From the NCBI GenBank assembly GCA_028875225.1, contig JAPPFB010000017.1, positions 81,920 through 145,919 on the forward strand: 64,000 nucleotides of DNA, in the 5' to 3' direction. This document shows positions 1,787-63,185 of this stretch, in pieces. The stretch is from Chloroflexota bacterium (GTDB taxonomy: Bacteria; Chloroflexota; Dehalococcoidia; Bin125). Numbering within the stretch: the first letter of the stretch is position 1; each line of letters begins with the position of its first letter. Both the position numbers and the translations under genes were made by a program. A model generated the notes under the pieces. That model saw only the letters and a list, made by a program, of their open reading frames with translations, searched no databases and was not told where the DNA came from.

Positions 1787-1798
1787 CCCTTTCCGATC

Positions 1799-1833
1799 CT
1801 CTCTCCCCGAGGGAGAGGGTTAGGGTGAGGGCC
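1799..1833 (+). repeat. Family B hairpin repeat (CTCTCCC-N4-GGGAGAGGG + TTAGGGTGAGGGC)
   Basis: Same module at 46181-46276 (inverted pair), 62939-62973 and degenerate at 61153-61186. Confidence 0.8.
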
Positions 1834-1879
1834 AACGGGCCTTTGTGCCCACTCACACGAGGAGATGTCAAATCACCCT

Positions 1880-2010
1880 CCGCTCTCCCCTGTTCCAAAG
1901 GGAGACGCCTGCCCACCTCGTTCTTCCCCCTTTCAGGAGGAGATGCCTGCCCCTACTTTCTCCCCCCTTCCAGGGGAAGATGCCGAAGGCAGAGGGGGTC
2001 CCCCGTCCCA
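1880..2010 (+). repeat. Family A composite/degenerate copy (C-rich hairpins ... GATGCCGAAGGCAGAGGGGGTCCC)
   Basis: Several C5-7/G5-7 hairpins followed by the conserved GCCGAAGGC + AGAGGGGG(C/T)CCC tail; lies in the efp-xseA spacer. Confidence 0.7.
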
Positions 2011-2046
2011 TCGCAGACCCGTTCAACCAGCCAGACCTCACAAGCC

Positions 2047-3384
2047 ATGCCCAAACGCCCACCCACCGGCTTCAACGTCCGCCGAGCCCAACAACAACGC
2101 ATCGACTGGGACAATTCGCAGCCCCAACCCACCGAGCAGCCCGTCTCGACCCCTCAATCCCGACCCGTCGGCGAAGTCGCGCGACACATCAAGAGCCAGC
2201 TCAAGGCCGACCCACAGCTCAACGACGTCTGGATCGAGGGCGAGGTCCGCAGCTTCAACCGCTCCGGCGCCGGCCACTACTACTTCGACCTCGCTGATTC
2301 ACAGAAAGACGGCAAGTCCGACGCCGCCCTGGCCTGTGCATTCTTCCGCCGCGACAACCGAGGCATGGCTGTCCAACAGGGCGACCAGGTGCTCGTTCAC
2401 GGCAGCGCCGATGTCTACCTCCCCCGAGGCTCGTTGCAGATCATCGTCGACGACCTTCGCCCAATCGGCGAAGGCGTCCTCCAGGCCGAGTTCGAGCGCC
2501 TCTTTCGCAACCTGAACGCCGAGGGCCTCTTCAATCCCGAGCGCAAGCGCTCGTTGCCGCCGTATCCCCGCCGGATCGGAGTCGTCACCTCGCCCAGCGG
2601 CGCGGTCTGGCACGACATCCAGCAGGTGCTTTCCCGTCGCTGGCCCTTAACCTCGCTGGTCCTCTCCCCCTGCCTCACCCAGGGCGCCGGGGCGGCTGAA
2701 TCGATCGCCGAGGGCATCCAGCGGCTCAACCTTCTGACTGTTGACGAACCCGACCTGATCATCGTCGCCCGAGGCGGTGGCTCGCCCGAGGACCTCTGGG
2801 CCTACAACGAGGAACCCGTCGCCCGCGCCATCTTCGCCAGCGACATCCCCGTCATCTCCGCGGTCGGACACGAGACCGACGTCAGCATCGCCGATCACGT
2901 CGCCGACCGCCGAGCGCCGACCCCGTCCGCCGCCGCCGAGATCGCCGTCCCCGACCGCGCCGAAGAAGCTGCCCGCGTCGCCGGACTTCGCCAGGCTGCC
3001 GACCAGAAGATTGACAGCCGAATCGTGGAACTCGCTCAGCGAGGACTGCTCAGCCGCGAACGACTTGAACGCGCCGCGCCGCATCCGCCGACGATGCGCG
3101 TCGAACTCAACCGCCGCAGGCGAGAACTCGATCAGGCGATCGAACGGCAGCTGGCGCTCTTGAGAGCGCAGCAGACCGCCAGCGCCTCCAGGCTCAGCGC
3201 TCTCAACCCCCTGGCAACCCTCGAACGCGGCTACGCCATCGTCTCGGACGATCAGGAACGGGTCGTCACCACCGCCGCTGACCTGTCCCGCGACCAGCGC
3301 GTCTCAATCAGGTTCGCCGACGGAGAAATCGCTGCCCGGACCACCTCAGACGCCACTCCCGGCAAGGAGCTACCACATGCCTGA
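2047..3384 (+). CDS. xseA: Exodeoxyribonuclease VII large subunit
   Basis: OB-fold N-terminus (VWIEGEVRSFNRSGAGHYYFDL) and catalytic core (VVTSPSGAVWHDIQ...IVARGGGS). ATG at 2047 chosen because the track ORF from 1825 runs through an intergenic repeat region. Confidence 0.88.
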   Translation: MPKRPPTGFNVRRAQQQRIDWDNSQPQPTEQPVSTPQSRPVGEVARHIKSQLKADPQLNDVWIEGEVRSFNRSGAGHYYFDLADSQKDGKSDAALACAFFRRDNRGMAVQQGDQVLVHGSADVYLPRGSLQIIVDDLRPIGEGVLQAEFERLFRNLNAEGLFNPERKRSLPPYPRRIGVVTSPSGAVWHDIQQVLSRRWPLTSLVLSPCLTQGAGAAESIAEGIQRLNLLTVDEPDLIIVARGGGSPEDLWAYNEEPVARAIFASDIPVISAVGHETDVSIADHVADRRAPTPSAAAEIAVPDRAEEAARVAGLRQAADQKIDSRIVELAQRGLLSRERLERAAPHPPTMRVELNRRRRELDQAIERQLALLRAQQTASASRLSALNPLATLERGYAIVSDDQERVVTTAADLSRDQRVSIRFADGEIAARTTSDATPGKELPHA

Positions 3385-3585: not shown

Positions 3586-3638
3586 AGACCTCCCCCTTTG
3601 GGGGAGGTGCGCCGAAGGCGCGGAGGGGGCCGCCCGGC
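3586..3638 (+). repeat. Family A hairpin element, immediately after xseB
   Basis: CCTCCCCC-tttg-GGGGGAGG + tgcGCCGAAGGCgcGGAGGGGGCC. Confidence 0.75.
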
Positions 3639-3939
3639 CGACATCCACATAGCTCGAGTTACACAGAGAACACAGCCCATCAGAACATCCGTACACATAC
3701 AATGGCAGGTACCCGAGAAACATTGACCGCCTCCCGGAGCCTGACATGACCCGCCCCGCAATCCGGACCACCCTGGAACCGCCTGGAATGGCCCAGCCAA
3801 ACCCTCACGAATTCCGGACTGATCTGGACGAATCTGGACAAATCTGGACAAATCCGCTCGATTCTGACCAGAATCTCCATTCCACAGCGGGAAACTGTCC
3901 CTCTTCGACCCGAATTCCCTCTCCTCACCGCGCACAAGC

Positions 3940-5124: not shown

Positions 5125-7471
5125 ATCTCTGGTTCCGCTCACGCTCACGATTCTCCTGTTCCCGCTTGCTAACCAACCCGGTTCCATCCATGCGTCGCAC
5201 AATCCCCGCTTGGTGATCAGTGAAGTGCATCCAAACGTTGCCGCCGACGGCTCGTCCTGGGATTCGTACGAGTGGATCGAAATCCACAATCTCGAACGCC
5301 ATCCGGCCAACCTGGACGGCTGGATCATCGAGGACGCCCAGTCCATCGCGCCGCTTCCTGACATCGAGCTGCCAGCGGGCGGCGCCGTGTTGGTCGCTGG
5401 CAGCGCCGCCGACATCGAGGTACCTTCGGGCAAGACTCTGATCATCCTGGACCGTCCGAGGATCGGCACCGGTCTGCGCAATGCCGGCGACCGGGTGGCG
5501 CTGATCAATCCGTACGGAGTTCGCTACGACGCCGTCAGTTGGGGAGACGTGCGCTGGCCGCGCGCCAGCGAGCCGCCCAATCCGCGCCAATCGATCGTCA
5601 GAACTTCCACTGGCGGGCAGTCGTTGTCGGACCGATTGACGCCCTGGACCGTCGGCGAAGCGATCAGCGCGGCACCGGACCGGCATCGCCATCCACTTCC
5701 TGAAACGTCGGTCCGGATGGTCAAGGCGCTCATCGATCCCGGCGAAGGCGACTCGGAGACGCTCACGATTCGCAACCTCTCCGATCGCCCACTGATCACT
5801 GTCAACTGGACGCTGACCGTCAACAACTCCCTGATCACGCTGCCCTCGGTCCGAATCGAACCCGGCGTGTCCTACGACATCCGAGAGGCGGATGGCACAC
5901 TGGGCGCCGGCATATCCAGCGACGGCGGCCATCTGGTCCTCCGAGACAGCAGAGGCAACTGGCTGGCGACCGCCAGCTGGGGCGACGACCACACGTTTCA
6001 CAAGATTCCTCCGCCCGCGCCCGGGCAGGAGTTGCGATTCAATCCGTTCGCGAGGATTCACCCGCGCGTCCCCTGGTTCGACGTCGATCGCGAAGACAGA
6101 CTCATGGTTGGTCGGGGTCGGGGGACGAAGTCACTGCTGGCTTCCAGCATTAGCTCTCTGTCGCTGCGCGAACATCACCGTGCGAGCCCACACCAGGATT
6201 CCGATCGAGCGCCGATCTGGATCAGCGAGGTCTACCCTAATGCCGGGCAGGGCAGAAGTGACGCCGCGCATGAGTGGTTTGAATTGACCAACTCCACCGA
6301 ATCGCCACTGCAGCTCGATGAGTGGTCAATCGCCGACAACACCTCCGCCGACTCCCTCGACGGGGTCACGATTCCACCAGGCTCATCCGTCGTCATTGGC
6401 GGCGCCGCGCAGGCTGATTCAGGCGTCGTGGCCGCTATCGAAGACGGTCGAATCGGCAATGGCCTGGCCAACAGTGGGGACCAACTCCGGCTGATCAATC
6501 CGGCCGGCGAGGTGGTCAGTGCGATCAGCTGGGGCGACGACCGGTCGTTCGACGCGATCACTGCGCCACAGCCCGATGAGTCGCTGCATCGCGAGTCGCC
6601 ATCCGACATCCCGTTCCTCGGCAGACCTTCGCCCGGGATGTTGACCGTGTCTCCGACCCCGGCGCCGGCGCTTACCAATGTCGAAACGCCGACAGCGCCG
6701 GCCGGTCAGGACGATCTGCTCGATTCCACGCAGCCTGCGCAAACAGAACCGTCGATTGCCCCGGTCATCGACGAAACCCTGCCGGTGCTGATGATCACCG
6801 AAATCCTGTCTGCTCCGTTGCCGGGACAACCGGAGTGGGTTGAGATTCACAATCCAAACGAGGAGTCTGTCGATCTCAATGGATGGACAATCGGCGATCC
6901 GCAACGACGAACGGCGTTGCACGGCACCATGACCGCCGGTTCCTACGTCGTGGTCACCACCCAACCGCTGGAGTCGGATGTCGATACCATCGTCGTCGAA
7001 CGGATTGGCAACGGTCTCAACAATGACGCCGACTCCATTGCCATCTTCACTCCAACTGGACGCGTCGTTGACGAAGTCAGCTACGGACACGGTGAGTTGC
7101 CTGCTCCTGATCGAGGACTGTCGATCGCATTGGATCCCGAGCGCTGGGTCGTCACGGCATTGCCGACTCCCGGTGCAGCCGATGTCACTCCGCTCCTGGC
7201 AGACGCCTTCCGTTCTGCCGCTCCGAAAGCTCCGATTTCCGATGAGGGTCGCCTGCCGCTGGTGAGCGCAGAAGCGGACGCCGGCGTGAATGCCTGGATG
7301 ATCGTGAGCTTCGCTCTGATCGGCGTGATCATCACCCTGGTCGTCCGTCGCGTCCAGCCCGACCAGGTACAGCCGGAGGCGACGGTTGAGGCGAGCCACT
7401 ACTCCGGGCCGGACGCTGTTTCAGCGTCCTCAGTGGACCCCGAGGAACACAATGATCCGACGAGAACATGA
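5021..7471 (+). CDS. Surface protein with three lamin-tail domains and a C-terminal TM anchor
   Basis: Three LTD (PF00932-like) units: LVISEVHPN...EWIEIHN...LDGWII...NAGDRVALINPYG (about 5210-5560), IWISEVYPN...EWFELTN...LDEWSI (about 6220-6540), LMITEIL...EWVEIHNP...LNGWTI (about 6790-7100); C-terminal hydrophobic AWMIVSFALIGVIITLVV. The 5' end is uncertain: the 5021 ATG frame has poor GC3 until about 5125 and overlaps the upstream ORF. Confidence 0.7.
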   Translation: MTRFDRSSPRRPSTSKRSWSRNKPLFAVALRSFPKSLVPLTLTILLFPLANQPGSIHASHNPRLVISEVHPNVAADGSSWDSYEWIEIHNLERHPANLDGWIIEDAQSIAPLPDIELPAGGAVLVAGSAADIEVPSGKTLIILDRPRIGTGLRNAGDRVALINPYGVRYDAVSWGDVRWPRASEPPNPRQSIVRTSTGGQSLSDRLTPWTVGEAISAAPDRHRHPLPETSVRMVKALIDPGEGDSETLTIRNLSDRPLITVNWTLTVNNSLITLPSVRIEPGVSYDIREADGTLGAGISSDGGHLVLRDSRGNWLATASWGDDHTFHKIPPPAPGQELRFNPFARIHPRVPWFDVDREDRLMVGRGRGTKSLLASSISSLSLREHHRASPHQDSDRAPIWISEVYPNAGQGRSDAAHEWFELTNSTESPLQLDEWSIADNTSADSLDGVTIPPGSSVVIGGAAQADSGVVAAIEDGRIGNGLANSGDQLRLINPAGEVVSAISWGDDRSFDAITAPQPDESLHRESPSDIPFLGRPSPGMLTVSPTPAPALTNVETPTAPAGQDDLLDSTQPAQTEPSIAPVIDETLPVLMITEILSAPLPGQPEWVEIHNPNEESVDLNGWTIGDPQRRTALHGTMTAGSYVVVTTQPLESDVDTIVVERIGNGLNNDADSIAIFTPTGRVVDEVSYGHGELPAPDRGLSIALDPERWVVTALPTPGAADVTPLLADAFRSAAPKAPISDEGRLPLVSAEADAGVNAWMIVSFALIGVIITLVVRRVQPDQVQPEATVEASHYSGPDAVSASSVDPEEHNDPTRT

Positions 7472-23148: not shown

Positions 23149-23186
23149 TGGGTCTGGGCCCCGTGTCAAACACGGGGCATCGCGTA
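23149..23186. repeat. Family D REP-like hairpin (GTCTGGGCCCCGTG-tcaaa-CACGGGGCATCG)
   Basis: Between convergent DDN-like and LLM genes; copies at 25284, 27920 and 28053. Confidence 0.8.
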
Positions 23187-25144: not shown

Positions 25145-25283
25145 CGGGGTCTCCTGTCTCATCGGTTGCAGTCAGGCTAGGTGGGAGTCTAGGTGCGGGG
25201 AAGGGTACGGGCTGGTGGGCGAGTGGCAAGCTCTTGATGATGGGCTCGGCGAGGGGGACTTCGACCTGCGAGCGAGGATCGAC

Positions 25284-25400
25284 GTCTGGGCCCCGCATCA
25301 AGTGCGGGGCATCGGAGTTGGGGGCGAGAGTGCGGGGCATCGGAGAGGAAGGAGTGCGAGGCATCGGAACGGGGGATGGGGGAGTGTGTGGGGAGGGGGC
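25284..25400. repeat. Family D hairpin followed by a degenerate tandem array of its 3' half (AGTGCGGGGCATCGGAG, three copies, period ~27)
   Basis: gtctgggccccgcatcaagtgcggggcatcggag, then agtgcggggcatcggag, then agtgcgaggcatcggaa, within a G-rich spacer. Confidence 0.75.
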
Positions 25401-27919: not shown

Positions 27920-28120
27920 TCGATGCCCCGTGCTTGACACGGGGCCCAGAGCACGTCGCTTTACTCGCGAGGCGGCGATGCACCTTGCACAGCCTTTGAT
28001 AGCGGGATCCGTCCGAGACGAGAAGCTACTCTCATCCGCGCTCGTCGGCTGAGGTCTGGGCCCCGTGTCAAGCACGGGGCATCGCGAGCATGGGCATCGG
28101 GAGCACGGGGTATCGGGATG
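27920..28120. repeat. Inverted pair of Family D hairpins flanking about 100 nt (MITE-like), plus trailing half-repeats
   Basis: 27920-27951 is the reverse complement of 28053-28086 (31 of 32 nt); lies between convergent gatB and AKR paralog 1. Confidence 0.75.
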
Positions 28121-28153: not shown

Positions 28154-29173
28154 CTAGCGGCGCATGGCGGCGACTCTTGGGTTGTGGATGATCTGCGGGG
28201 TGTTCTGGTAGGTGGGGACGCCGACGTCGTCGAAGATCTGGTTGATTCCGCTTCGGATTTCCTCGGTCAGTTTCCAGTCGGTGGCGGCGACGTTCTCCTC
28301 GAGTTCTCGCTCGTTTCGCATCCCGACGAGGGCGCAGGAGACTCCGGGATGGTCGAGGACCCAGGCGAGCGCGAGCTGGGCAACGGTCTTGCCGTAGCCG
28401 TCGGCGAATTGGGCGAGTCGGTTGCAGACTTCGACTTCGCGGCGGAAGTGCTCACGCTCGAACAGGGGCAGGTTGAAGGCGAGCGGGTTGCGACGCCAGT
28501 CGCCCTCTTCGAAGGTGTGCTCGGGCGTGAAGGCTCCGGTCAGCAGGCCAAAGGCGAGTGAGCCGTAGGACATGAAGCCGACTCCGTTGGCCATGCACCA
28601 GGGCAGGACTCGGGCCTCCATGCGCCGATCGAACATGTGGTATCCGATCTGGTTGGCCGTGATGTGTCCGTACCGCTCGCATTCCTGCATCAGGTCGATG
28701 TCGTAGTTCGAGACGCCATAGTGTCGAATCTTGCCGCTCTGCTTCAGTTCTTCGAGGGCCTCCATCGTTTCCTCGATCGGCGTGTCGAAGTCGGGCCAGT
28801 GGATCAGGAGCAGGTCCAGATAGTCCGTGTTCAGACGCCGGAGACAGCCCTCCGCGCACTCGATGACGTTCTGCTTCGACGAGTTGAGTCCCGTCATGGT
28901 CGGCGTGTCGTCGAAATCGAATCCGACTTTGGTGACGAGGATGATCTCGTTGCGCCGGCTGCCGAGCGCTCTGGCGAGTAGTTCTTCCGAGAGAAAGGGT
29001 CCGTAGCCTTCGGCGGTGTCGAAGAGGGTGATGCCGCGGTCGATGGCCATGTTGACGGCGCGGGAGGCCTCGTCGACGTCGATATGGCCGTACATCGTCG
29101 TGCTCATCTCCCAGGTGCCGAAGCCGACCGCGGAGGAGACGAGATCTGTGTTGCCGAATCGTCGCTGTTCCAT
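28154..29173 (-). CDS. Aldo/keto reductase (paralog 1 of 3)
   Basis: AKR fold: FGTWEM, IDRGITLFDTAEGYG, IHWPD, GVSNYD; tandem with two paralogs. Confidence 0.88.
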   Translation of the reverse strand: MEQRRFGNTDLVSSAVGFGTWEMSTTMYGHIDVDEASRAVNMAIDRGITLFDTAEGYGPFLSEELLARALGSRRNEIILVTKVGFDFDDTPTMTGLNSSKQNVIECAEGCLRRLNTDYLDLLLIHWPDFDTPIEETMEALEELKQSGKIRHYGVSNYDIDLMQECERYGHITANQIGYHMFDRRMEARVLPWCMANGVGFMSYGSLAFGLLTGAFTPEHTFEEGDWRRNPLAFNLPLFEREHFRREVEVCNRLAQFADGYGKTVAQLALAWVLDHPGVSCALVGMRNERELEENVAATDWKLTEEIRSGINQIFDDVGVPTYQNTPQIIHNPRVAAMRR

Positions 29174-29188
29174 CGTCGTTGCCGAACC

Positions 29189-30178
29189 TCAGATCGCCTG
29201 AGGGGCGTTCTGGTAGGTCGGGACTCCGACTTCTTCGAAGATCTCGTTGATTGCGTTGCGGATCTCCTCGTTGAGTTTCCAGTCGGTGGCGGCGACGTTT
29301 TCCTCGAGTTCTCGCTCGTTTCTCATGCCGACGAGGGCGCAAGAGACGGCGGGATGGTCGAGTACCCAGGCGAGGGCGAGTTGGGCGACGGTCTTGTTGT
29401 AGCCGTCGGCGAGTTCGACGAGGCGGTTGGTGACTTCGACTTCTTTGCGGAAATGCTCCTCCTGGAAGAGGGGGAGGTTGAAGGCCATGCCGCTGCGCCG
29501 CCAGTCGCCCTCTTCGAAGGTGGTGTCGGGCGTGAAGGCGCCGGTCAGCAGGCCGAAGCCGAGCGAGCCATAGGCCATGTAGCCGACGCCGTTGGCGAGA
29601 CACCAGGGCAGGACGCGCGATTCCATGCGGCGGTCGAACATGTTGTAGCCGACCTGGTTGGCGGCGATGTGTCCGTACTGCTCGCACTCTTCCATCATGT
29701 CGATGTTGAAGTTGGAGACGCCGTAGTGTCGGATTTTGCCGCTCTGCTTGAGTTCTTCGAGGCCCTCCATCGTTTCCTCGATCGGCGTGTCGTGATCGGG
29801 CCAGTGGATCAGCATCAGGTCGACGAAGTCGGTGTTGAGGCGGCGAAGACAATCATCCGTGTGCTCGATGATGTGTGCCTTCTTCGAGTTGCGGCCGATC
29901 ACCTTGGGCGTGTCGTCGTAGTCGAAGCCAACCTTGGTCACGAGCACGATTTCGTTGCGGCGGTTGCCGAGCGCTTTGGCCAGCAGCTCCTCGGAGTGGT
30001 AGGGGCCGTAGACCTCGGCGGTGTCGAAGAGGGTGATGCCGCGGTCGATTGCCATGTTGACGGCGCGAGCGGCCTCATCGACGTCGATGTGGCCGTACAT
30101 GGTGGTGCTCATCTCCCAGGTGCCGAAGCCGACGGCCGAGGCGACCAGGTCGGTGTTGCCGAATTGTCGTTGTTCCAT
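29189..30178 (-). CDS. Aldo/keto reductase (paralog 2 of 3)
   Basis: About 85-90% aa identity to paralog 1 by eye. Confidence 0.88.
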   Translation of the reverse strand: MEQRQFGNTDLVASAVGFGTWEMSTTMYGHIDVDEAARAVNMAIDRGITLFDTAEVYGPYHSEELLAKALGNRRNEIVLVTKVGFDYDDTPKVIGRNSKKAHIIEHTDDCLRRLNTDFVDLMLIHWPDHDTPIEETMEGLEELKQSGKIRHYGVSNFNIDMMEECEQYGHIAANQVGYNMFDRRMESRVLPWCLANGVGYMAYGSLGFGLLTGAFTPDTTFEEGDWRRSGMAFNLPLFQEEHFRKEVEVTNRLVELADGYNKTVAQLALAWVLDHPAVSCALVGMRNERELEENVAATDWKLNEEIRNAINEIFEEVGVPTYQNAPQAI

Positions 30179-30218
30179 AGTGTTCCTTGGTGGGTGATGG
30201 TGGGTTGGACTGGGCCGG

Positions 30219-30272
30219 AAGGGACCCCCTCAGCCTTCGGCAGCTCCCCCTGCAAGGGGGAGCCGGGAGGTG
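30219..30272 (-). repeat. Family A hairpin element between AKR paralogs 3 and 2
   Basis: Reverse complement reads CTCCCCC-ttgc-AGGGGGAG + ctGCCGAAGGC + tGAGGGGGTCCC; same orientation as the flanking minus-strand genes. Confidence 0.75.
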
Positions 30273-30275
30273 GAC

Positions 30276-31307
30276 CTAGTCGCGGAGGTTGCGACGGGCG
30301 CCGGTGGCTCGGGCGACGTGGACGACCTGGTCGAGGTTCTGATAGGTGGGCACCCCGACCTCGGCGAAGATCTCGTTGACTCCGCTGCGGATTTCCTCGG
30401 TCAGCTTCCAGTCGGTGGCGGCGACGTTCTCTTCGAGTTCGCGCTCGTTGCGCATACCGACCAGGGCGCAGCTGACCCCTGGGTGGTCGAGGACCCAGGC
30501 GATGCCGAGCTGGGCGCAGGTCTTGCCGTAGCCGTCGGCGAGCTCCGCGAGTCGGTTGGCGATCTCGACCTCCTGCCTGAAGCGGTCGCTCTCGAACAGG
30601 GGCAGGTTGAAGGCGGTGCCGTTGCGCCGCCAGTCGCTCTCGTCGAATTGGTGATCGGGCTCGAACGCGGCGGTCAAGAGACCGAAGGCGAGCGAGCCGT
30701 AGGACATGAAGCCGACGCCGTTGGCCATGCACCAGGGCAACACGCGAGACTCCATCCGCCGGTCGAACATGTGGTAGCCGACCTGGTTGGCGACGATCGT
30801 GCCGTGACGCTGGCACTCCTCCATCATGTCGATGTTGAAGTTGGAGACGCCGTAATGGCGGATCTTGCCGGCCTGCTTCAATTCTTCCAGACCCTCCATC
30901 GTCTCTTCGAAGGGCGTGTCGTGGTCGGGCCAGTGAATCAGCATCAGGTCGACGTAGTCGGTGTTCAGCCGGCGCAGGCAACCCTCGGTGTGCTCGATGA
31001 TGTGGTCCTTCTTGGAGTTGAGGCCGATCACCTGGGGCACGTCGTTGTAGTCGAAGCCGACCTTGGTCACCAACACAACTTCGTTGCGCCGGCTGCCCAG
31101 GCCCTCGGCGAGCAGCTCCTCGGAGTGATTCGGGCCGTATACCTCGGCCGTGTCGAACAGGGTGATGCCGCGGTCGATCGCCATGTTCACGGCGCGTGCG
31201 GCCTCGCTGCGGTCGATGTGACCGTACATGTTGCCGCTCATCTCCCACGTGCCGAAGCCGACGGCGGAAGCCACCAGGTCGCTGTTTCCGAATCGTCGCT
31301 GTTCCAT
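30276..31307 (-). CDS. Aldo/keto reductase (paralog 3 of 3)
   Basis: About 75% identity to paralogs 1 and 2; start taken at MEQRRFGNSD (31307) to match the paralogs. Confidence 0.85.
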   Translation of the reverse strand: MEQRRFGNSDLVASAVGFGTWEMSGNMYGHIDRSEAARAVNMAIDRGITLFDTAEVYGPNHSEELLAEGLGSRRNEVVLVTKVGFDYNDVPQVIGLNSKKDHIIEHTEGCLRRLNTDYVDLMLIHWPDHDTPFEETMEGLEELKQAGKIRHYGVSNFNIDMMEECQRHGTIVANQVGYHMFDRRMESRVLPWCMANGVGFMSYGSLAFGLLTAAFEPDHQFDESDWRRNGTAFNLPLFESDRFRQEVEIANRLAELADGYGKTCAQLGIAWVLDHPGVSCALVGMRNERELEENVAATDWKLTEEIRSGVNEIFAEVGVPTYQNLDQVVHVARATGARRNLRD

Positions 31308-31397
31308 GGCTTGATTCCTGTCTAGTTGGTTGGATGCCAATCGGATGCGCAGCGCCTAAGTTACTGCTTTGGCGGGGAGCGGCACTATAGTGACGTT

Positions 31398-43902: not shown

Positions 43903-46170
43903 ATGGCTATCGAACCCGACGCCCTCCTGCGAATCGAGGAGGCATACGCGAAGCTGCGCGACGGCATTGACGTCGCCCGACGACGAATCGATCGACCGCT
44001 GACGCTGGCCGAGAAGATCCTCTTCGGTCACTTCACCGATCCGGCCAATCAGCCGATCGAACGCGGCGTGGACCACGCCGCGCTGCAGCCGGACCGAGTC
44101 GCGCTACAGGACGCCACAGCCCAGATGGCGCTGCTCCAGTTCGAACTGGCCGGACTGCAACGCGTCGTGGTGCCGACCACCGTCCACTGTGACCACTTGA
44201 TCCAGGCTCGGATCGGCGCCGACCCAGATCTCGAAGTCGCCATCTCGGAGAACGAGGAAGTCTACGAGTTCCTGCGCAGCGCCGCCGCCCGCTATGGCGC
44301 GGGCTTCTGGAAGCCCGGCTCCGGCATCATTCACCAGGTCGTCTTTGAGAACTACGCGTTCCCCGGCGGCATGATGATCGGTACCGACTCGCATACGCCC
44401 AACGCCGGAGGCATGGGAATGATCGCGATCGGCGTCGGGGGCGCCGACGCCGTCGACGTGATGGCCGGACTCGGCTGGGGCGTCACCATGCCAAGGCTGA
44501 TCGGCGTCCACCTGACCGGCGAACTCGACGGCTGGACCGCGCCCAAGGACGTCATCCTGCGCGTCGCCGACGAACTCACGGTTAAGGGCGGTACCGGCGC
44601 GATCGTCGAGTACTTCGGTCCCGGCCTCCAGTCGATGAGCGCCACCGGTCGCGGCACCGTCACCAACATGGGCGCCGAAATCGGCGCGACGACCTCGCTC
44701 TTCCCCTTCGACGAGCGAACCGCTGCGTATCTGCGCAGCACCGACCGCGCCGACATCGCCGCACTGGCAGAGGCGAATGCCGACCATCTCCGCGCCGACG
44801 ACGACGTCGCCGACGCGCGTCACGAAATCTTCGACCGGGTGATCGAGATCAACCTCAGTGAGCTGGAGCCGGCCTGGGTCGGACCGCACACGCCCGACCT
44901 GCGTAACACCGTGGCAGAGATTCGCGGATTCATGGAGTCTGAGGCCTACCCGCTCAATGTGACCAACGCCCTGATCGGCTCATGCACCAACTCCTCATAC
45001 GAGGACATGAGCCGCGCCGCCCACATCGCCCGCCAGGCCGCCGACGCCGGCCTCGAACTGCGCGCGCCCCTGTTGGTCACGCCGGGCTCCGAACAGATCC
45101 GCGCCACGACCAAGCGCGACGGCCAGATCGACGCCTTCGAGTCGGCCGGCGCGACCGTGCTCGCCAATGCCTGCGGACCCTGCATCGGTCAATGGAAGCG
45201 CGAGGACATCGAGGGCGACGAGCAGAACACGATCGTCACGTCCTTCAACCGCAACTTCCCGGGCCGCAACGACGCCAACCGCAACACCCTCGCCTTCATC
45301 GGCTCGCCCGAGCTGGTCGTCGCCACCGCCTTCGCCGGTGAAATGGGATTCGATCCTCGCAGCGACTCCATCGCCACGGCCGACGGCGAGTTCCGCTTCT
45401 CTGCGCCCACAGGTGACGAGTTGCCGGCAGATGGGTTCGATGTCGGGGACGAGGGATTTATCGCTCCGCCCAAAGATGGCAGCGACGTCGACGTAATCGT
45501 CAGCCCTGAGAGCGACCGTCTCCAGCGGCTCACCCCGTTCAACGCCTGGGACGGTAACGACTACACCTTCATGTCGCTGCTACTCAAGACCCAGGGCAAG
45601 ACCACGACCGACCACATATCGCCGGCCGGTTCCTGGTTGCGATTCCGCGGCCATCTCGAGAACATCTCCGGCAACCTCTTCAGCGGCGGGGTCAACGCCT
45701 TCACCGGCGAGACCGGAACCACGCTCAATCAGATCAGCGGTCAGGCCGACCAACCAATCAACGAGGTCGCCCGCGCCTACAAGGACGCCGGCATCCGCTG
45801 GGTCGCCGTGGGCGACGAGAACTACGGCGAGGGATCCAGCCGCGAGCACGCCTCGATGGAGATCCGCTGGAGCGGCGGCTACATGGTGATCGCCCGCTCG
45901 TTCGCCCGCATCGCCGAGACCAACCTGAAAAAGCAGGGCATCCTCGCACTCACCTTCAGCGACCCGGCGGACTACGACCTCGTCGGCCAGCTCGACCGCT
46001 TGAGCGTGCTCGGATTGTCTGAGTTCGCCCCCGGCCAGCCTCTCACCCTGCGCATCGACCACGAGGACGGCTCCAGCGACGAGGTCGCCGTCAACCACAG
46101 TTACACCGACGAGCAGATCACTTGGTTCCAGGCCGGCAGCGCCCTGAACAAGATCGCGGCGTCGCAGTAG
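43903..46170 (+). CDS. acn: Aconitate hydratase, mitochondrial-type (ACO2-like)
   Basis: 755 aa; [13 protein letters not shown]...[13 protein letters not shown]...[11 protein letters not shown]...[12 protein letters not shown]; domain order and size of the mitochondrial-type enzyme rather than AcnA/AcnB. ATG at 43903; the track ORF from 43207 is an overlap artefact. Confidence 0.88.
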
Positions 46171-46180
46171 CGCCAGTCAG

Positions 46181-46276
46181 GCCCTCACCCTAACCCTCTC
46201 CCTTGGGGAGAGGGAAAACGAGCGAAGAGCGAAAGATCGGCTCCCTCTCCCACTGGGAGAGGGCTGGGGTGAGGGC
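46181..46276. repeat. Inverted pair of Family B modules forming a long potential hairpin (acn to mdh spacer)
   Basis: GCCCTCACCCTAACCctctcccTTGGggagaggg ... ccctctcccACTGggagagggCTGGGGTGAGGGC with a 26-nt spacer. Confidence 0.8.
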
Positions 46277-46408
46277 CCGCCAAGAGGCAAGTCTCGTCAT
46301 CTCAGCCACTCACATAGCAGACTCAAAGCCCCCTATCCGATAACAATTGGACAAGTCCCGTCTATTCCCCGCGGGTATGGCTGCCCGTGTTCAGAAAGGT
46401 CCGAGACC

Positions 46409-47356
46409 ATGCGAACGAAGGTGACCGTCATTGGAGCTGGAAACGTCGGCGCGACCACAGCTCAGCGACTCGCCGAGCGCGGATACGCCGACGTTGTCCT
46501 GGTCGATATCGTCGATGGCCTGCCCCAGGGCAAGGCGCTCGACATGTACGAGGCTTCGCCTGTGATCGGCATCGACTCCAGCATCACCGGCGCTACCGAC
46601 TACGGCCCAACCGCGGGCTCCGACATCGTCGTGATCACCTCCGGCGTCGCCCGCAAACCAGGCATGTCCCGCGACGACTTGCTGCAAATCAACATGGGCA
46701 TCGTCGACTCGGTCACCCGCGCCGCGATCGCCGAGTCGCCCGACGCCACCATCGTCGTGGTCTCGAATCCGCTCGACGCGATGTGCCACGTCGCCTACGA
46801 CGCGGCAGGGATTCCCAGTTCGCGCGTCGTGGGCATGGCCGGCATTCTCGACACCGCGCGCTACCGCTCTTTCCTCGCCGAAGCGATCAACGTCTCGGTC
46901 GAGGACATCAACGCCTTCGTCCTCGGCGGCCACGGCGACACCATGGTCCCGCTCGCTTCCTACACCACCGCCGCCGGCATTCCGATCACGAAACTCCTGC
47001 CTCAGGACCAGCTCGACCAGATCATCCAGCGCACCCGCGACGGTGGCGCCGAGATCGTCAACCTGCTCAAGACCGGTTCCGCCTTCTACGCGCCCTCCGC
47101 CGCCGTCGCGCAGATGGTCGACGCCATCGCGCTCGACAAGCGCCGCATCCTCCCCTGCGCCGCCCTATTGAACGGCGAGTACGGGGTTGACGGCCTGTTC
47201 ATCGGTGTGCCGGTCGTGCTCGGCCAGAACGGGATCGAGCAGATCCTCGAGATCAGCCTCACCGACGAGGAGCAGTCTCAGCTCCAGCACTCTGCCGACG
47301 CCGTCCAGGGCCTCGTCGACGACATGGCCCGACTCAGCCAGAACAACGGCGGCTAA
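46409..47356 (+). CDS. mdh: Malate dehydrogenase (LDH-like)
   Basis: VIGAGNVG; LDH/MDH family throughout. Confidence 0.92.
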
Positions 47357-47470
47357 ATCCGCACTTCGACTGACCAGGATCGCACAGCGACCGTCCAACA
47401 TCGAACAGAATCGAACAGAATCGTCCAAGACCGAACAACGAGAGCGCTCAAACCCCGCTGAGGACTGAAC

Positions 47471-48865: not shown

Positions 48866-48945
48866 TTTCTCCCCCCGCTTTGCGGGGGGAGATGCCGAAA
48901 GCCTGCCCCCGCGAAGGCGGGGGGCAGAGGGGGCTCCCGCTTTGC
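48866..48945 (+). repeat. Family A two-hairpin element (fumC to PPOX spacer)
   Basis: TCCCCCCGC-tttg-GCGGGGGGA + gatGCCGAAAGC + CTGCCCCCGC-gaag-GCGGGGGGCAG + AGGGGGCTCCC. Confidence 0.85.
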
Positions 48946-52962: not shown

Positions 52963-52983
52963 TCACAGAAAGCCCTCTCCCAT

Positions 52984-53056
52984 CTCCCCCCGCTGAGCGG
53001 GGGGAGATGCCGCAAGCCTGCCCCGCACTTTATGCGGGGGCAGAGGGGGGGCTCCC
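52984..53056 (+). repeat. Family A two-hairpin element (LLM to trmH spacer)
   Basis: Near-identical architecture to 48866-48945; the 3' G-run abuts the GTG start at 53057. Confidence 0.85.
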
Positions 53057-60949: not shown

Positions 60950-61007
60950 CCGCATCATCGTCATTCCCGCGCTCGACGACACCGCCGTCATTCCCCCGCT
61001 TGCAGCG

Positions 61008-61186
61008 GGAATCTCGATTCCTTCTCCCTGAGGAGACCTGCGCGTAAACCCATCAAAGTCGGCCCCGCGTAGGCGGGGCCCAGCGCATGTTGTCTGGACA
61101 CGCCGCCCCCGCCTGCGCGGGGGCGACTTCTTCAAGGAGCTACGCGCAGGTCTCCTGAGGGAAAGGGCTAGCGTGAGGGCCGTACC
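61008..61186. repeat. Family C nested-palindrome composite element (MITE-like), copy 1
   Basis: Outer ~25-bp inverted repeat (cttctccctgaggagacctgcgcgta / tacgcgcaggtctcctgagggaaag) enclosing two GC hairpins (GGCCCCGCG-tagg-CGGGGCC; CGCCCCCGC-ctgc-GCGGGGGCG); sits between convergent ppc and the DUF35 gene. Confidence 0.8.
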
Positions 61187-61649: not shown

Positions 61650-62830
61650 TAGAGCACCGCCTCAGAACCGACGATCATGTCGGACACCGGCGTCACCATC
61701 GGACCCGACGCGACCAGCGACACATTCACGTCGTCGACCTGGTTGCAGGACTCGCCCCGCACCTGGCGGACCGCCTCGATGTTCAATTCCAGGCCGTGCA
61801 TGTAGCACTCGGCCAGGTTGCCGCCGCTGGTGTTGATCGGCATCTTGCCATTCGGCGCGGTCAGGTTCTCGAACGTGATGAACTCGTTGGCCTCTTCGTA
61901 AGTGGTCAGCCCATGCTCGATGATGCTCATCACGACGCCGCCGGTGAAGTTCTCATAGACCTGCGCCACGTCGACCTCTTCCGGCTTGACCTGCGCCATC
62001 TCGTACATGCGCGGCGCGACCGTCTTGAAGTTGGAGGTGGCGTAATCGGTGGCGTTGTGCGAGCCGGATCCGGCCCGGTTGCCCGAGCCGACCGCGCCGC
62101 CGAGGAAGTAGACCGGCGTCTTCGCGTAGTCCTTGGCCCGATCGGCCGAGACGAAGATCATCGCCGCCGCGCCGTCGTTCTCCTGGCAGCAGTCGAACAG
62201 GTGGAACGGTTCGACAATCCAGCGCGAGGCGTCGTAGTCCTCCGGCGTTAGCGGACGGCCGTACATCACCGCGCGCGGGTTGTTCTGCGCGTGGTGGTAC
62301 GAGGCCAGCGAGCACGCCTTGAGCGTGTCCTGCGTGATCCCGTGGTCCTCGTACAGCCGATGGATGCGCATCGCAAACGACTGCGCCGGCGACATCAGTC
62401 CGTACGGCGCCGTGTAGGCCTGGTCGCCGCGCACGTGCGGTACGCGAGCGCCCTGCCCGAAGCGTCCGAATTGACCCTGCGCCAGTCCCCGGAAGACGAC
62501 CACCGTGTCGGCCAGACCGGTCGCAACCGCCGAGGCCGCGTGAGCGCAGGCCGCCGAGCCGCCGCCGCCACCGCCACCCCACTCCATGTTGGAGAAGCGC
62601 AGGTCCTTGATGTCAAGCGCCGCCGCGATCCGCGACGGGTCGTTGCGGTCGTTGGAGTACGAGGCAAACCCGTCAATCTCCCGCGGGTCAATGCCTGCAT
62701 CGGCGCTGGCCTTGAGGATCGCCTCGATCACGAGCTTGAACTCCGGATCGGGCGAGCGTCCCCGCTTGTAGTACGTCGTCTCACCGACGCCGATGATCGC
62801 CACTTCGCCGCGCATCGTGCGGTTACCCAT
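61649..62830 (-). CDS. Thiolase-like protein, SCP2/lipid-transfer type
   Basis: Thiolase fold lacking the standard acetyl-CoA thiolase motifs; typical DUF35 partner; ATG at 62830 with GGAAGGA SD. Confidence 0.8.
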   Translation of the reverse strand: MGNRTMRGEVAIIGVGETTYYKRGRSPDPEFKLVIEAILKASADAGIDPREIDGFASYSNDRNDPSRIAAALDIKDLRFSNMEWGGGGGGGSAACAHAASAVATGLADTVVVFRGLAQGQFGRFGQGARVPHVRGDQAYTAPYGLMSPAQSFAMRIHRLYEDHGITQDTLKACSLASYHHAQNNPRAVMYGRPLTPEDYDASRWIVEPFHLFDCCQENDGAAAMIFVSADRAKDYAKTPVYFLGGAVGSGNRAGSGSHNATDYATSNFKTVAPRMYEMAQVKPEEVDVAQVYENFTGGVVMSIIEHGLTTYEEANEFITFENLTAPNGKMPINTSGGNLAECYMHGLELNIEAVRQVRGESCNQVDDVNVSLVASGPMVTPVSDMIVGSEAVL

Positions 62831-62938
62831 ATCTGATGTCCTTCCCAGTGCCTCGTTACGCAGGCAGTTTAGATGATGGTCGTGAGAACCACTCAGCTCG
62901 CACCCCGAATTCATCGATTCATGACTCGGACTTCGGTT

Positions 62939-62973
62939 CCCTCTCCCTGAGGGAGAGGGTTAGGGTGAGGGCG
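62939..62973 (+). repeat. Family B hairpin repeat
   Basis: ccctctcccTGAGggagagggTTAGGGTGAGGGC; an inverted partial copy follows at 63021-63047. Confidence 0.8.
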
Positions 62974-63018
62974 CCTCGGCGATGGAGGACGTGCAATGAC
63001 CAGAGAGCGAGCAACGGC

Positions 63019-63185
63019 CAGACCCTCACCCCGGCCCTCTCCCGGTGGAGGCTTGCGCGTCAACCAACCAAGGTCGGCCCCGCGCAGGCGGGGCCCTGCA
63101 GCGCCTATCCGGTCACCGCGCCCCCGCCTGCGCGGGGGCGACTTCATCGAGGGATTACGCGCAACTCTCCAGTGGGAGAGGCAGT
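63019..63185. repeat. Family C nested-palindrome composite element, copy 2
   Basis: Same two inner hairpins (GGCCCCGCG-cagg-CGGGGCC; CGCCCCCGC-ctgc-GCGGGGGCG) and a homologous outer stem (cctctcccggtggaggcttgcgcgtcaa / ttacgcgcaactctccagtgggagagg). Confidence 0.8.

Follow-up and report, generated by a model that had tools for sequence, protein, structure and literature searches.

What are the short hairpins that lie between the genes of a 64,000-nucleotide (nt) stretch of a Chloroflexota genome (GenBank assembly GCA_028875225.1, contig JAPPFB010000017.1, positions 81,920 to 145,919; hereafter the window), and how did they come to be there? A first reading of the letters, the original prediction, sorted these hairpins into families A, B and C and saw in them a combinatorial repertoire of modules. 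Here we report that family B is not private to this genome. Judged by its sequence, it is the known BoxC/PIT/TMECO repeat of Escherichia coli, an assignment that we regard as secure. This repeat has been known since the 1990s, and neither its function nor its mode of spread is agreed upon. The explanation that best accounts for the evidence overall, and that we consider probable, is that B is a REP-type, non-autonomous repeat with the capacity to form a triplex. The host is sponge-associated: the EF-P, malate dehydrogenase and fumarase of the window match exactly proteins of a 'Chloroflexota bacterium' on sponge metagenome contigs.

Identity and host range of family B

The B unit, CCCTCTCCC-N3-GGGAGAGGG-(TTA/CTG)-GGGTGAGGG-C, is present at 1799, 46181 (minus strand), 46243 and 62939, where the original prediction had placed it, and is missing from shuffled sequence. 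It is an interspersed, non-coding element of 33-34 nt with five parts: first the pyrimidine block CCCTCTCCC, then a 3-nt loop, then GGGAGAGGG, which complements the first block, then a second 3-nt loop (TTA in type A, CCG or CTG in type B) and last GGGTGAGGG, which mirrors the second block. The first loop had been given as 4 nt. A literal N4 pattern has no match, and CTCTCCC-N{1,8}-GGGAGAG has four (1801, 46196, 46245 and 62941, against 0.00 expected), each with a loop of 3 nt. The longer motif TTAGGGTGAGGGC occurs three times exactly (1820+, 46181-, 62960+) and twice with two mismatches (46264+, 61168+); shuffles that preserve dinucleotides lead us to expect 0.88 matches, and none of 100 reaches the five observed. 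Identity to the reference copy ranges from 77 to 100% among the window units, and a repeat finder places 1794-1832, 46238-46276 and 62934-62972 in one family.

Four units are complete or nearly so. The first (1799..1832, plus strand, type A) has a C block, CTCTCTCCC, with one mismatch and begins 12 nt past the efp stop codon. Two others form an inverted doublet 10 nt past the stop codon of the aconitase gene (acn), with a type A unit as the left arm (46181..46214, minus strand) and a type-B-like unit with CTG as its second loop as the right arm (46243..46276, plus strand). The last (62939..62972, plus strand, type A, with TGA as loop 1) sits upstream of the thiolase gene, 109 nt from its annotated start codon at 62830; an alternative start for this open reading frame (ORF) at 62914 is absent from the records and was rejected. 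Two further units are split by family C, as described below. All copies lie between called or annotated genes, four on the plus strand and two on the minus strand when the split units are counted. Across the window, 13 intergenic sites hold repeats, in agreement with the earlier estimate of at least 12.

Could these be unrelated low-complexity GC hairpins that recur by chance? The window has a G+C content of 64%, and many weak families returned by the repeat finder (for example D5-D8) are indeed chance matches in coding sequence. However, three to five copies are observed per motif where 0.00 to 0.88 are expected, and the units are ordered three-block structures of 33-34 nt that match the E. 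coli consensus exactly and are found only between genes. Shuffle controls and matches in other genomes refute chance recurrence, to which we assign practically no probability. The families recur far above chance, with conserved flanks, and, as originally proposed, they occupy most of the longer spacers.

A full-text search with the 21-mer GGGAGAGGGTTAGGGTGAGGG pointed to two papers (PMC4666352 and PMC5100583). The published TMECO consensus is CCCTCNCCC N3-6 GGGNGAGGG N3 GGGNGAGGG followed by G, T, C or no base (PMC4666352). It has three exact matches in the window, with none expected, and the fourth copy, at 1799, differs by one mismatch. Table 1 of Holder et al. 2015 (PMC4666352) gives 23 TMECO copies in E. 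coli K-12, of which number 17 is CCCTCTCCCTGAGGGAGAGGGTTAGGGTGAGGGG; the window unit at 62939-62972 is identical to it but for the last base (C). BoxC is the original name of this element, which was later rediscovered as PIT (PMC4666352; Bachellier and colleagues, 1990s; Hoyne et al. 2000) and appears among the E. coli stem-loop families of Petrillo et al. 2008. A 51-nt segment of the window matches 4608 of 5426 complete E. coli genomes, at a median of six places each, none of them annotated. An Rfam scan of the whole window yields no family at the gathering score, and E-value mode returns only sub-threshold matches that resemble microRNA precursors or generic long hairpins. One of these, whalefall-1, scores 16.7 bits against a gathering score of 37 and does not recur at a perfect B copy, and was thus rejected as the identity of the element.

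The likeness extends to the way in which units are paired. Type A units carry TTA as the second loop and type B units CCG, and all five inverted pairs in E. coli combine one of each (PMC4666352). Both window pairs are inverted and join A to a B-like unit: 46181(-) TTA with 46243(+) CTG, and 62939(+) TTA with 63023-63182(-) CCG. In other genomes, 37 of 47 neighbouring B pairs within 200 nt are inverted, and the partner of the TTA unit is non-TTA in all but one of the 37; this sample was seeded with TTA units and so is not an independent test of the pairing rule. The window and E. coli elements also share non-coding sites, use of both orientations, absence of an adjacent mobility gene and sharp differences in copy number among close relatives, the last of which is documented for E. 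coli strains (PMC4666352). They differ in host, in flanks, in the 130-nt palindrome that occupies loop 1 of two window copies, and in that B shares spacers here with a second mirror-type family (A).

How far does the repeat extend? A scan of a genome collection with a strict type A pattern (CCCTCTCCC NNN GGGAGAGGG TTA GGGTGAGGG C) gives at least 118 stretches. By record titles, the 34-mer is present in at least eight phyla among the matches listed, and the proportions of groups among these matches are only indicative: at least 38 stretches in Chloroflexota (mostly Dehalococcoidia and SAR202, including other sponge metagenome-assembled genomes, or MAGs), at least 35 in Planctomycetota, at least 34 in Pseudomonadota (Pseudomonas at least 15, Enterobacterales at least 8, others at least 11), at least 4 in Calditrichota, at least 2 each in Acidobacteriota and Dethiobacter, and at least 1 each in Nostocaceae, Armatimonadota and an unclassified genome. 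Among the matches listed, Chloroflexota and Planctomycetota are as prominent as Proteobacteria. The text of Holder et al. covers 262 proteobacterial genomes; Table S1 adds two copies in Planctomyces limnophilus, and the part of the supplement that we consulted has no Chloroflexi (PMC4666352). The same core in Chloroflexota and in genomes titled as eight phyla makes the BoxC question wider than the enterobacteria.

The 33-nt core is the same across lineages, and the flanks and loop 1 are lineage-specific. In Chloroflexota the arrangement is AATC|core|CG with TCT, TCC or CGA as loop 1; in Planctomycetota it is GGTC|core|C with TTT or TCC; in Enterobacterales loop 1 is TGT and the tail is CATCAGG. 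In one Planctomycetota locus (L242:2520-2561, with a minus-strand twin near 7427), loop 1 is a 21-nt mini-hairpin (GGCACCGGCCGAAGGCAGGTC / GGCACCGACCGAAGGTTGGTC) that resembles the family A linker CCGAAGG.

We also looked for vehicles. B elements occur in 352 plasmid records, 216 of them conjugative or mobilizable, and a generic B pattern matches at least 120 IMG/VR contigs, and host flanks may account for some of these. We rejected phages as the principal vehicle, as only 5 of 50,697 cultured phage records hold an element, some of these being mislabelled bacterial DNA. Two Campylobacter phage records (MG065686.1 and MG065691.1) each match a GC-rich B unit twice, at 95% over 41 nt. These matches are odd for such genomes; contamination and real acquisition are both possible.

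Third-block covariation and the possible fold of the unit

Why should a hairpin carry a third block that mirrors its second? In single-stranded or negatively supercoiled DNA, blocks 1 and 2 could pair as a 9-bp hairpin, and block 3 could then return along the purine strand in antiparallel sense to serve as a purine-motif third strand, yielding an intrastrand triplex. The T in GGGTGAGGG may also stop block 3 from rivalling block 2 as partner of the C block. Two inverted units would instead extrude an imperfect hairpin or cruciform of about 36 bp. ViennaRNA, which cannot model triplexes, confirms the 9-bp hairpin of B. For the pair after acn, a long hairpin of about 35 bp had been forecast, and the arms (46180-46215 and 46242-46277) are indeed 36 nt long, 86% complementary and 26 nt apart; the doublet is predicted to fold into a single long hairpin (-37.6 kcal/mol, z = -6.4 against shuffles). 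For the element in E. coli, in-vitro circular dichroism (CD) and nuclear magnetic resonance data on the triplex and an in-vivo dimethyl sulfate footprint have been published (PMC4666352).

A triplex would leave a trace in how blocks 2 and 3 vary together. We tabulated base triads over 369 non-redundant B copies in the antiparallel third-strand register, taking the G blocks as anchors. Twelve copies have G at position 4 of block 2, and six of them also have G at position 6 of block 3, its mirror position, whereas none of the other 357 copies does (Fisher p = 2.7e-10, with kinship ignored); when positions of equal index are compared as a control, the counts are 0 of 12 and 5 of 357. The T-A.A triad becomes C-G.G in five copies and C-G.A in four. 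Opposite the other A-T pair, block 3 has T in 324 copies, A in 32, G in 5 and C in 3, and A and T are the bases that the purine-motif code allows there. The natural compensated variant is CCCTCCCCC/GGGGGAGGG/GGGTGGGGG, and the uncompensated form has GGGAGAGGG. As far as sequence can tell, this pattern fits the rules of purine-motif triplexes, which a G-quadruplex does not require. The covariation in mirror register thereby speaks more for a triplex than for a quadruplex or a simple hairpin, and it supplies natural variants.

The quadruplex nonetheless has a case of its own. Every full window copy carries GGG AGA GGG TTA GGG TGA GGG, a canonical G-quadruplex motif (G3+ N1-7 x3 G3+) of the textbook form G3N3G3N3G3N3G3, and the four G3 tracts are kept in nearly all 369 copies. 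The four tracts of GGGAGAGGGTTAGGGTGAGGG might compete with the C-block hairpin in an ion-dependent switch between quadruplex, hairpin and duplex that regulates neighbouring genes. Kaplan et al. 2016 described the same E. coli sequences as HPG1 and HPG2, often paired on opposite strands and with a C-rich 5' flank, as in the B family, and CD revealed a K+-dependent quadruplex and Mg2+-dependent alternative folds (PMC5100583). That work stresses quadruplex topology, whereas the covariation reported here is in the mirror register, which a quadruplex switch leaves unaccounted for, together with the near-invariant middle G of the AGA and TGA loops and the rule that admits only A or T. The units also occur in both orientations, mostly at gene 3' ends, unlike a promoter-proximal regulator. 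Moreover, family A has a similar mirror layout and does not have four G tracts in standard quadruplex order. We judge the switch to be quite unlikely as the explanation of the family.

Position, turnover and possible modes of spread

Where B units lie bears on both what they might do and how they might arrive. Outside annotated loci, our counts of position rest on rough gene calls based on G+C at third codon positions (GC3). Intergenic copies make up 174 of 202. Among 139 copies from the window and the genome loci, 36 lie 6-20 nt past a stop codon, against 12.4 expected if copies were placed uniformly within their own spacers. Relative to the upstream gene, 60 are sense and 48 antisense. This preferred site, like the mirror covariation and the presence/absence pairs reported here, makes the BoxC question more testable.

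A hairpin just past a stop codon invites an explanation at the level of RNA, in which the transcribed 9-bp GC hairpin would serve as a terminator independent of a U tract, or as a REP-like barrier to exonucleases, and the third block would be incidental. Such a role could coexist with a quadruplex switch. The approximately three-fold enrichment 6-20 nt past stops agrees with it, as does the start of the window's B and A units 8-13 nt past the stops of efp, acn, xseB, fumC and an aldo/keto reductase gene. The five full or near-full A copies all have the sense orientation with respect to the gene before them, and the 3' end of efp keeps a hairpin in three lineages, each from a different family, which looks like selection for a hairpin. 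However, no T run follows any B unit (the bases 3' of the units are CCAACG, CCTGAC, CCCGCC and CGCCTC), and a scan of 1700-2100 and 46100-46450 for intrinsic terminators found no terminator-like site and no canonical sigma-70 promoter. The copy at 62939 lies upstream of a gene start. B occurs in both orientations (60:48), and its conserved third block is thus G-rich one way and C-rich the other. Purine-motif triplexes do not form in RNA (cited in PMC4666352), so the mirror covariation is unexplained at the RNA level, and E. coli PIT showed no terminator activity (cited in PMC4666352). An RNA 3'-end element is, in our estimation, unlikely.

Comparison with relatives indicates that the repeats come and go. 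In all five orthologous spacers that we compared, repeat content differs from that of the relatives. The efp-xseA spacer (260 nt in the window) holds B and three A elements; in one related lineage the spacer is 51 nt long and contains a B unit in decay (CCCTCTCCC TCT AGGAGAGGG CTA GGGTGAGAG), and in a second it is 52 nt long and contains a CCTCCCCC TCT GGGGGAGG hairpin. The acn-mdh spacer holds the B doublet, which is decayed in L378 and missing in L377 (whose malate dehydrogenase is 97% identical), L379 and L380. Between fumC and PNPOx the window has 129 nt with an A unit, and four relatives have 39-54 nt without A. The PEPcase-OB-fold spacer is 241 nt in the window and 50, 9 and 44 nt in relatives, and the region upstream of the thiolase gene is 421 nt against 88 and 174 nt. 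Over 21 kb of synteny, the window genome has two B and two A units where relatives have zero or one B and no A, which indicates recent gain in the window lineage. The original prediction was right that families share spacers, with B and A together at 1799-1998 (the efp-xseA spacer) and B and C at 61020-61180 and 62939-63182. The first of these spacers measures 51-52 nt in relatives, and B and A in it look like separately accumulated elements, not like a recombined composite. Relatives do hold other hairpin families at the same spacers, as a combinatorial repertoire would have it, but there is no sign that modules are shuffled as functional units.

Coding insertions point in the same direction. 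Twenty-eight B copies lie within called ORFs, and long genes translate them as (G/S/R)PHPNPLP(K/E)GEG or as another 12-residue peptide. In a Planctomycetaceae alpha-2-macroglobulin gene (Pfam A2M, bMG10, MG2), a 48-nt in-frame B segment is missing from the Pirellulales homologue (L220), and its flanks align cleanly with that homologue. A UvrA-like ABC ATPase gene holds two in-frame B doublets. The 48-nt segment is evidence of gain by insertion, much as with Rickettsia palindromic elements, and the clean presence/absence pairs among close relatives point the same way. Rickettsia palindromic elements, reportedly described by Ogata and colleagues in 2000, resemble the B units outside the window in being translated in frame within long genes; they are 100-150 bp long and known only from Rickettsia, in contrast to B, and no window copy of B is in frame. 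In MAG annotation, many of the short 'hypothetical proteins' that gene calling yields, and the odd PHPNPLPxGEG peptides, trace back to B units. The B units noted in long ORFs lie at L157:1276-1308 and 3133-3165, L241:4236-4268, L193:2061-2165 and 3789-3886, and L169:4609-4641; the genes with in-frame units comprise alpha-2-macroglobulin, the UvrA-like ABC ATPase and a class I tRNA synthetase-like gene. The last, in a Rickettsiales MAG (L169:2906-7579), is a 1557-residue ORF with an embedded DUF559 domain, a GNAT acetyltransferase and a B unit, and may be a fused or interrupted gene.

What moves the element? The genes in and around the window are all housekeeping. Pfam scans covering 12-41 kb of the window turned up no transposase, and when 765 ORFs of the 118 genome loci were clustered all against all, only housekeeping families emerged (luciferase-like, ABC ATPase, sigma factors, LeuA, MFS and the like). 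One candidate is a REPIN-RAYT system, in which the inverted A+B doublet would replicate as a unit and be moved in trans by a RAYT, a REP-associated tyrosine transposase of the HUH/Y1 type encoded elsewhere in the genome. Inverted doublets, with the capacity for a long hairpin, are frequent (37 of 47 neighbouring pairs), the acn-mdh doublet is present or missing as a unit, copy number differs sharply between close relatives, as among E. coli strains (PMC4666352), and the core of family C is itself a REP-like inverted doublet widespread in soil metagenomes. More broadly, B resembles REP and BIME elements as a short extragenic palindrome at gene 3' ends that occurs as singlets, inverted doublets and mosaic clusters and turns over rapidly. 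It differs in its extra mirror block and in a core that hardly varies between genomes titled as eight phyla, whereas a REP family is as a rule confined to one species and evolves in step with its RAYT. RAYT-associated REPs carry a 5' GTAG next to the palindrome, whereas the consensus upstream of B is AATC in Chloroflexota and GGTC in Planctomycetota. No RAYT (Y1/HUH) gene was found in approximately 80 kb of the window genome or in the 118 loci elsewhere, and neither these regions nor the earlier E. coli study (PMC4666352) revealed a recurrent mobility gene. Mobilisation by a RAYT seems to us very unlikely.

The nesting of family C within B adds to the likeness with REP sequences. Copy 1 of C (61029..61158, no strand assigned) is a 130-nt palindrome in loop 1 of a plus-strand B unit, whose C block (CCTTCTCCC) is at 61020..61028 and whose G block 1 (GGGAAAGGG), CTA and G block 2 (GCGTGAGGG C) are at 61159..61180. 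This tail is the degenerate copy that had been noted at 61153-61186. Copy 2 (63044..63173, no strand assigned) also measures 130 nt and lies in loop 1 of a degenerate minus-strand type B unit that the earlier list lacked, with G block 2, CCG and G block 1 at 63023..63043 (CCCTCACCC CGG CCCTCTCCC on the plus strand) and the remaining piece at 63174..63182. Because each orphan tail has its matching C block exactly 130 nt upstream, with the palindrome in place of the loop, what had been called concatenation of B with C is nesting. In copy 1 the order is CCTTCTCCC | TGA | GGAGACCTGCGCGTA ... TACGCGCAGGTCTCC | TGA | GGGAAAGGG CTA GCGTGAGGG C, with perfect 15-nt terminal inverted repeats (61032-61046 and 61141-61155), TGA outside both, and a core of two inverted GC hairpins (61061-61080 and 61104-61125); TGA is also loop 1 of the intact unit at 62939. 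Once the B-unit arms are included, the arms of copy 1 are 27 nt long and 89% complementary. Copy 2, flanked by GGT and AGT, has the same plus-strand orientation as copy 1 and, its host being a minus-strand type B unit, runs against the polarity of that unit, so that the third block falls on the opposite side. The two copies are 78% identical, and for each the predicted fold is a single long hairpin (-60.8 and -58.6 kcal/mol, z = -10.2 and -8.5).

This anatomy suggests that family C was inserted into the B hairpin loop. REP loops are known landing sites for the insertion sequences IS1397 and ISKpn1, and C within B may be analogous. Family C also resembles miniature inverted-repeat transposable elements in its size (approximately 130 nt), its perfect 15-nt terminal repeats, a possible 3-nt target duplication (TGA/TGA) and its predicted fold. 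It differs from them in having two copies only, an imperfect duplication at copy 2 (GGT/AGT) and no known parent insertion sequence, and its core is a REP-like doublet that is found without these arms in soil metagenomes. There the core 23-mer GCCCCCGCCTGCGCGGGGGCGAC is an arm of a common inverted doublet (L255-L374, at least 120 matches, mostly from soil), with GTCGCCCCCGCGCAGGCGGGGGCC, a variable spacer of approximately 30-70 nt (mostly about 42 nt) and GGCCCCCGCCTGCGCGGGGGCGAC, which gives it a REPIN-like look. The metagenome scan with the C core yielded only these simpler doublets and no further full C element among the matches listed. In a Dehalococcoidia MAG, a segmental duplication of approximately 80 nt (L214:6021-6110 and 6268-6345) includes a B unit and its flanks and adjoins outer-arm pieces of family C (GGAGACCTGCGCGTAAACC) in a rearranged mosaic.

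Together, these observations lead us to propose that B is a REP-like, triplex-capable element that is gained and lost among close relatives, mostly a few nucleotides past stop codons and in either orientation, with no mobility gene beside it, and whose loop is the site that holds palindromic repeat C. What is shown is that B belongs to a known family, how it is distributed, that it varies among relatives, that C is nested in it and that its blocks co-vary in mirror register; that the triplex forms in this organism, that the element spreads by insertion and that the cell draws any benefit from it are inferred. This mechanism is supported but unproven, and we offer it tentatively. Several points weigh against it. 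The lone copy at 1799 folds no better than shuffles (z = -0.8). The covariation rests on 12 variant copies, possibly of shared ancestry, and 4 of the 9 copies with the compensated C:G hairpin pair do not have the matching change in the third strand. The common E. coli subtype retains a G.A mismatch within its hairpin (30 copies), which shows that pairing need not be perfect, and since block 2, loop 2 and block 3 form a perfect G3N3G3N3G3N3G3, a G-quadruplex is equally allowed by the sequence. The E. coli element had no promoter or terminator activity and no in-vivo effect on replication in earlier work (PMC4666352). The enrichment past stop codons depends on the GC3-based gene calls. No transposase is present in the window, in approximately 17 kb of flanking sequence or in the 118 genome loci with B units, and no enzyme or mechanism of spread was found in them. 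Finally, relatives have no intact B unit without C at the two nested sites, the whole composite being missing there (in both L381 and L382), and insertion into the loop is thus read from anatomy.

One could envision a bolder scenario, in which the 33-nt core is a self-propagating, triplex-forming element found across bacteria that inserts after stop codons and in frame without a dedicated transposase. The triplex itself would be selected and might drive spread, for instance by stalling forks so that templates are switched, or by being recognised by a universal protein of replication or repair; the element would have expanded recently here together with family A, and would serve as a landing pad for the REP-like family C. 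We think it improbable that all of this holds.

Family A and other hairpins of the window

Family A is a lineage-restricted repeat built on a hairpin-plus-mirror-block plan similar to that of B, and among the loci compared it is also present in two other sponge Chloroflexota MAGs (L221 and L227). A full unit has a C block, a loop, a G block, a mini-hairpin linker (GCC GAA GGC) and a G block that mirrors the first. Its motifs exceed expectation in the window, with four matches to GAGAYGCC...TGCCC (0.16 expected) and two to GCCGAAGGCNGAGGGGG (0.19 expected).

Three A elements follow B in the efp-xseA spacer, all on the plus strand: two truncated hairpins, at 1883..1914 (CTCTCCCC...GGGAGA with CGCCTGCCC, and no mirror G block) and 1922..1953 (TCTTCC...GGAGGA with GATGCCTGCCCC), and a full unit at 1959..1998 with linker mini-hairpin GCCGAAGGC and mirror block GAGGGGG. 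The unit at 3588..3629 (plus strand), 13 nt past the xseB stop, reads ACCTCCCCC ttt GGGGGAGGT, GCGCCGAAGGCGC, GGAGGGGG, the last an exact mirror of its G block, and folds better than shuffles (z = -3.1). On the minus strand, a unit at 30225..30263 begins 12 nt past the stop of the aldo/keto reductase gene at 30276-31340. The unit at 48868..48933 (plus strand), 8 nt past the fumC stop, has an extra GC hairpin in its linker and the mirror block AGAGGGGG (z = -4.5). A further plus-strand unit at 52981..53024 (a hairpin with GAGATGCCGCAAGCCTGCCCC) has no mirror block and is preceded by a lone CCCTCTCCC at 52973-52981. The mirror pairs are GGGGGAGG/GGAGGGGG after xseB, AGGGGGAG/GAGGGGG at 30225-30263 and GGGGGGAGA/AGAGGGGG after fumC. 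As noted for the RNA-level explanation, each of the five full or near-full copies has the sense orientation of the upstream gene, and each starts 8-13 nt past the stop codon of that gene.

Other hairpins add to this inventory. A fourth family, TCTGGGCCCCGTG-tcaag-CACGGGGCATCG, has no mirror block and occurs at 23151-23184(+), 25283-25316(+), 27921-27950(-) and 28053-28086(+), with 76-100% identity; every copy is turned the same way with respect to the 3' end of its neighbouring gene (luciferase-like monooxygenase, metallophosphoesterase, GatB and aldo/keto reductase). A fifth type, at 60959-61016 (CGTCATTCCC-cgcttgcagc-GGGAATCTCG), has a partial duplicate just upstream and is common to L381 at the same spacer; a variant, GTCATACCCGCGCTTGCCGCGGGTATC, lies upstream of the thiolase gene in L382, and the class ATTCCCGCG...CGCGGGAAT adjoins the family C core in soil metagenome contigs. 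At 28154-31340, three tandem minus-strand aldo/keto reductase paralogues contain an internal 300-nt repeat that is 77-85% identical, and their 3' ends carry the family A unit and an GCCCCGTG hairpin.

Two features near mdh are of a different kind. Directly upstream of the gene, at 46285-46408, a non-coding block of approximately 95 nt (GCAGACYCAAAGCC...ATCNGATAACAAT...CCCGCGGGTRTGGCTGCCCGTGTYCWGAAAGGTCC) is kept in five lineages whose spacers otherwise differ; it has no Rfam match and could be a promoter, a 5' untranslated region or a regulatory RNA. In the mdh-fumC spacer, which varies among relatives (114, 62, 104, 54 and 11 nt), a tandem repeat of ATCGAACAGA in 2.4 copies lies at 47400-47423, and L378 has the related AAATCCGATCAAC.

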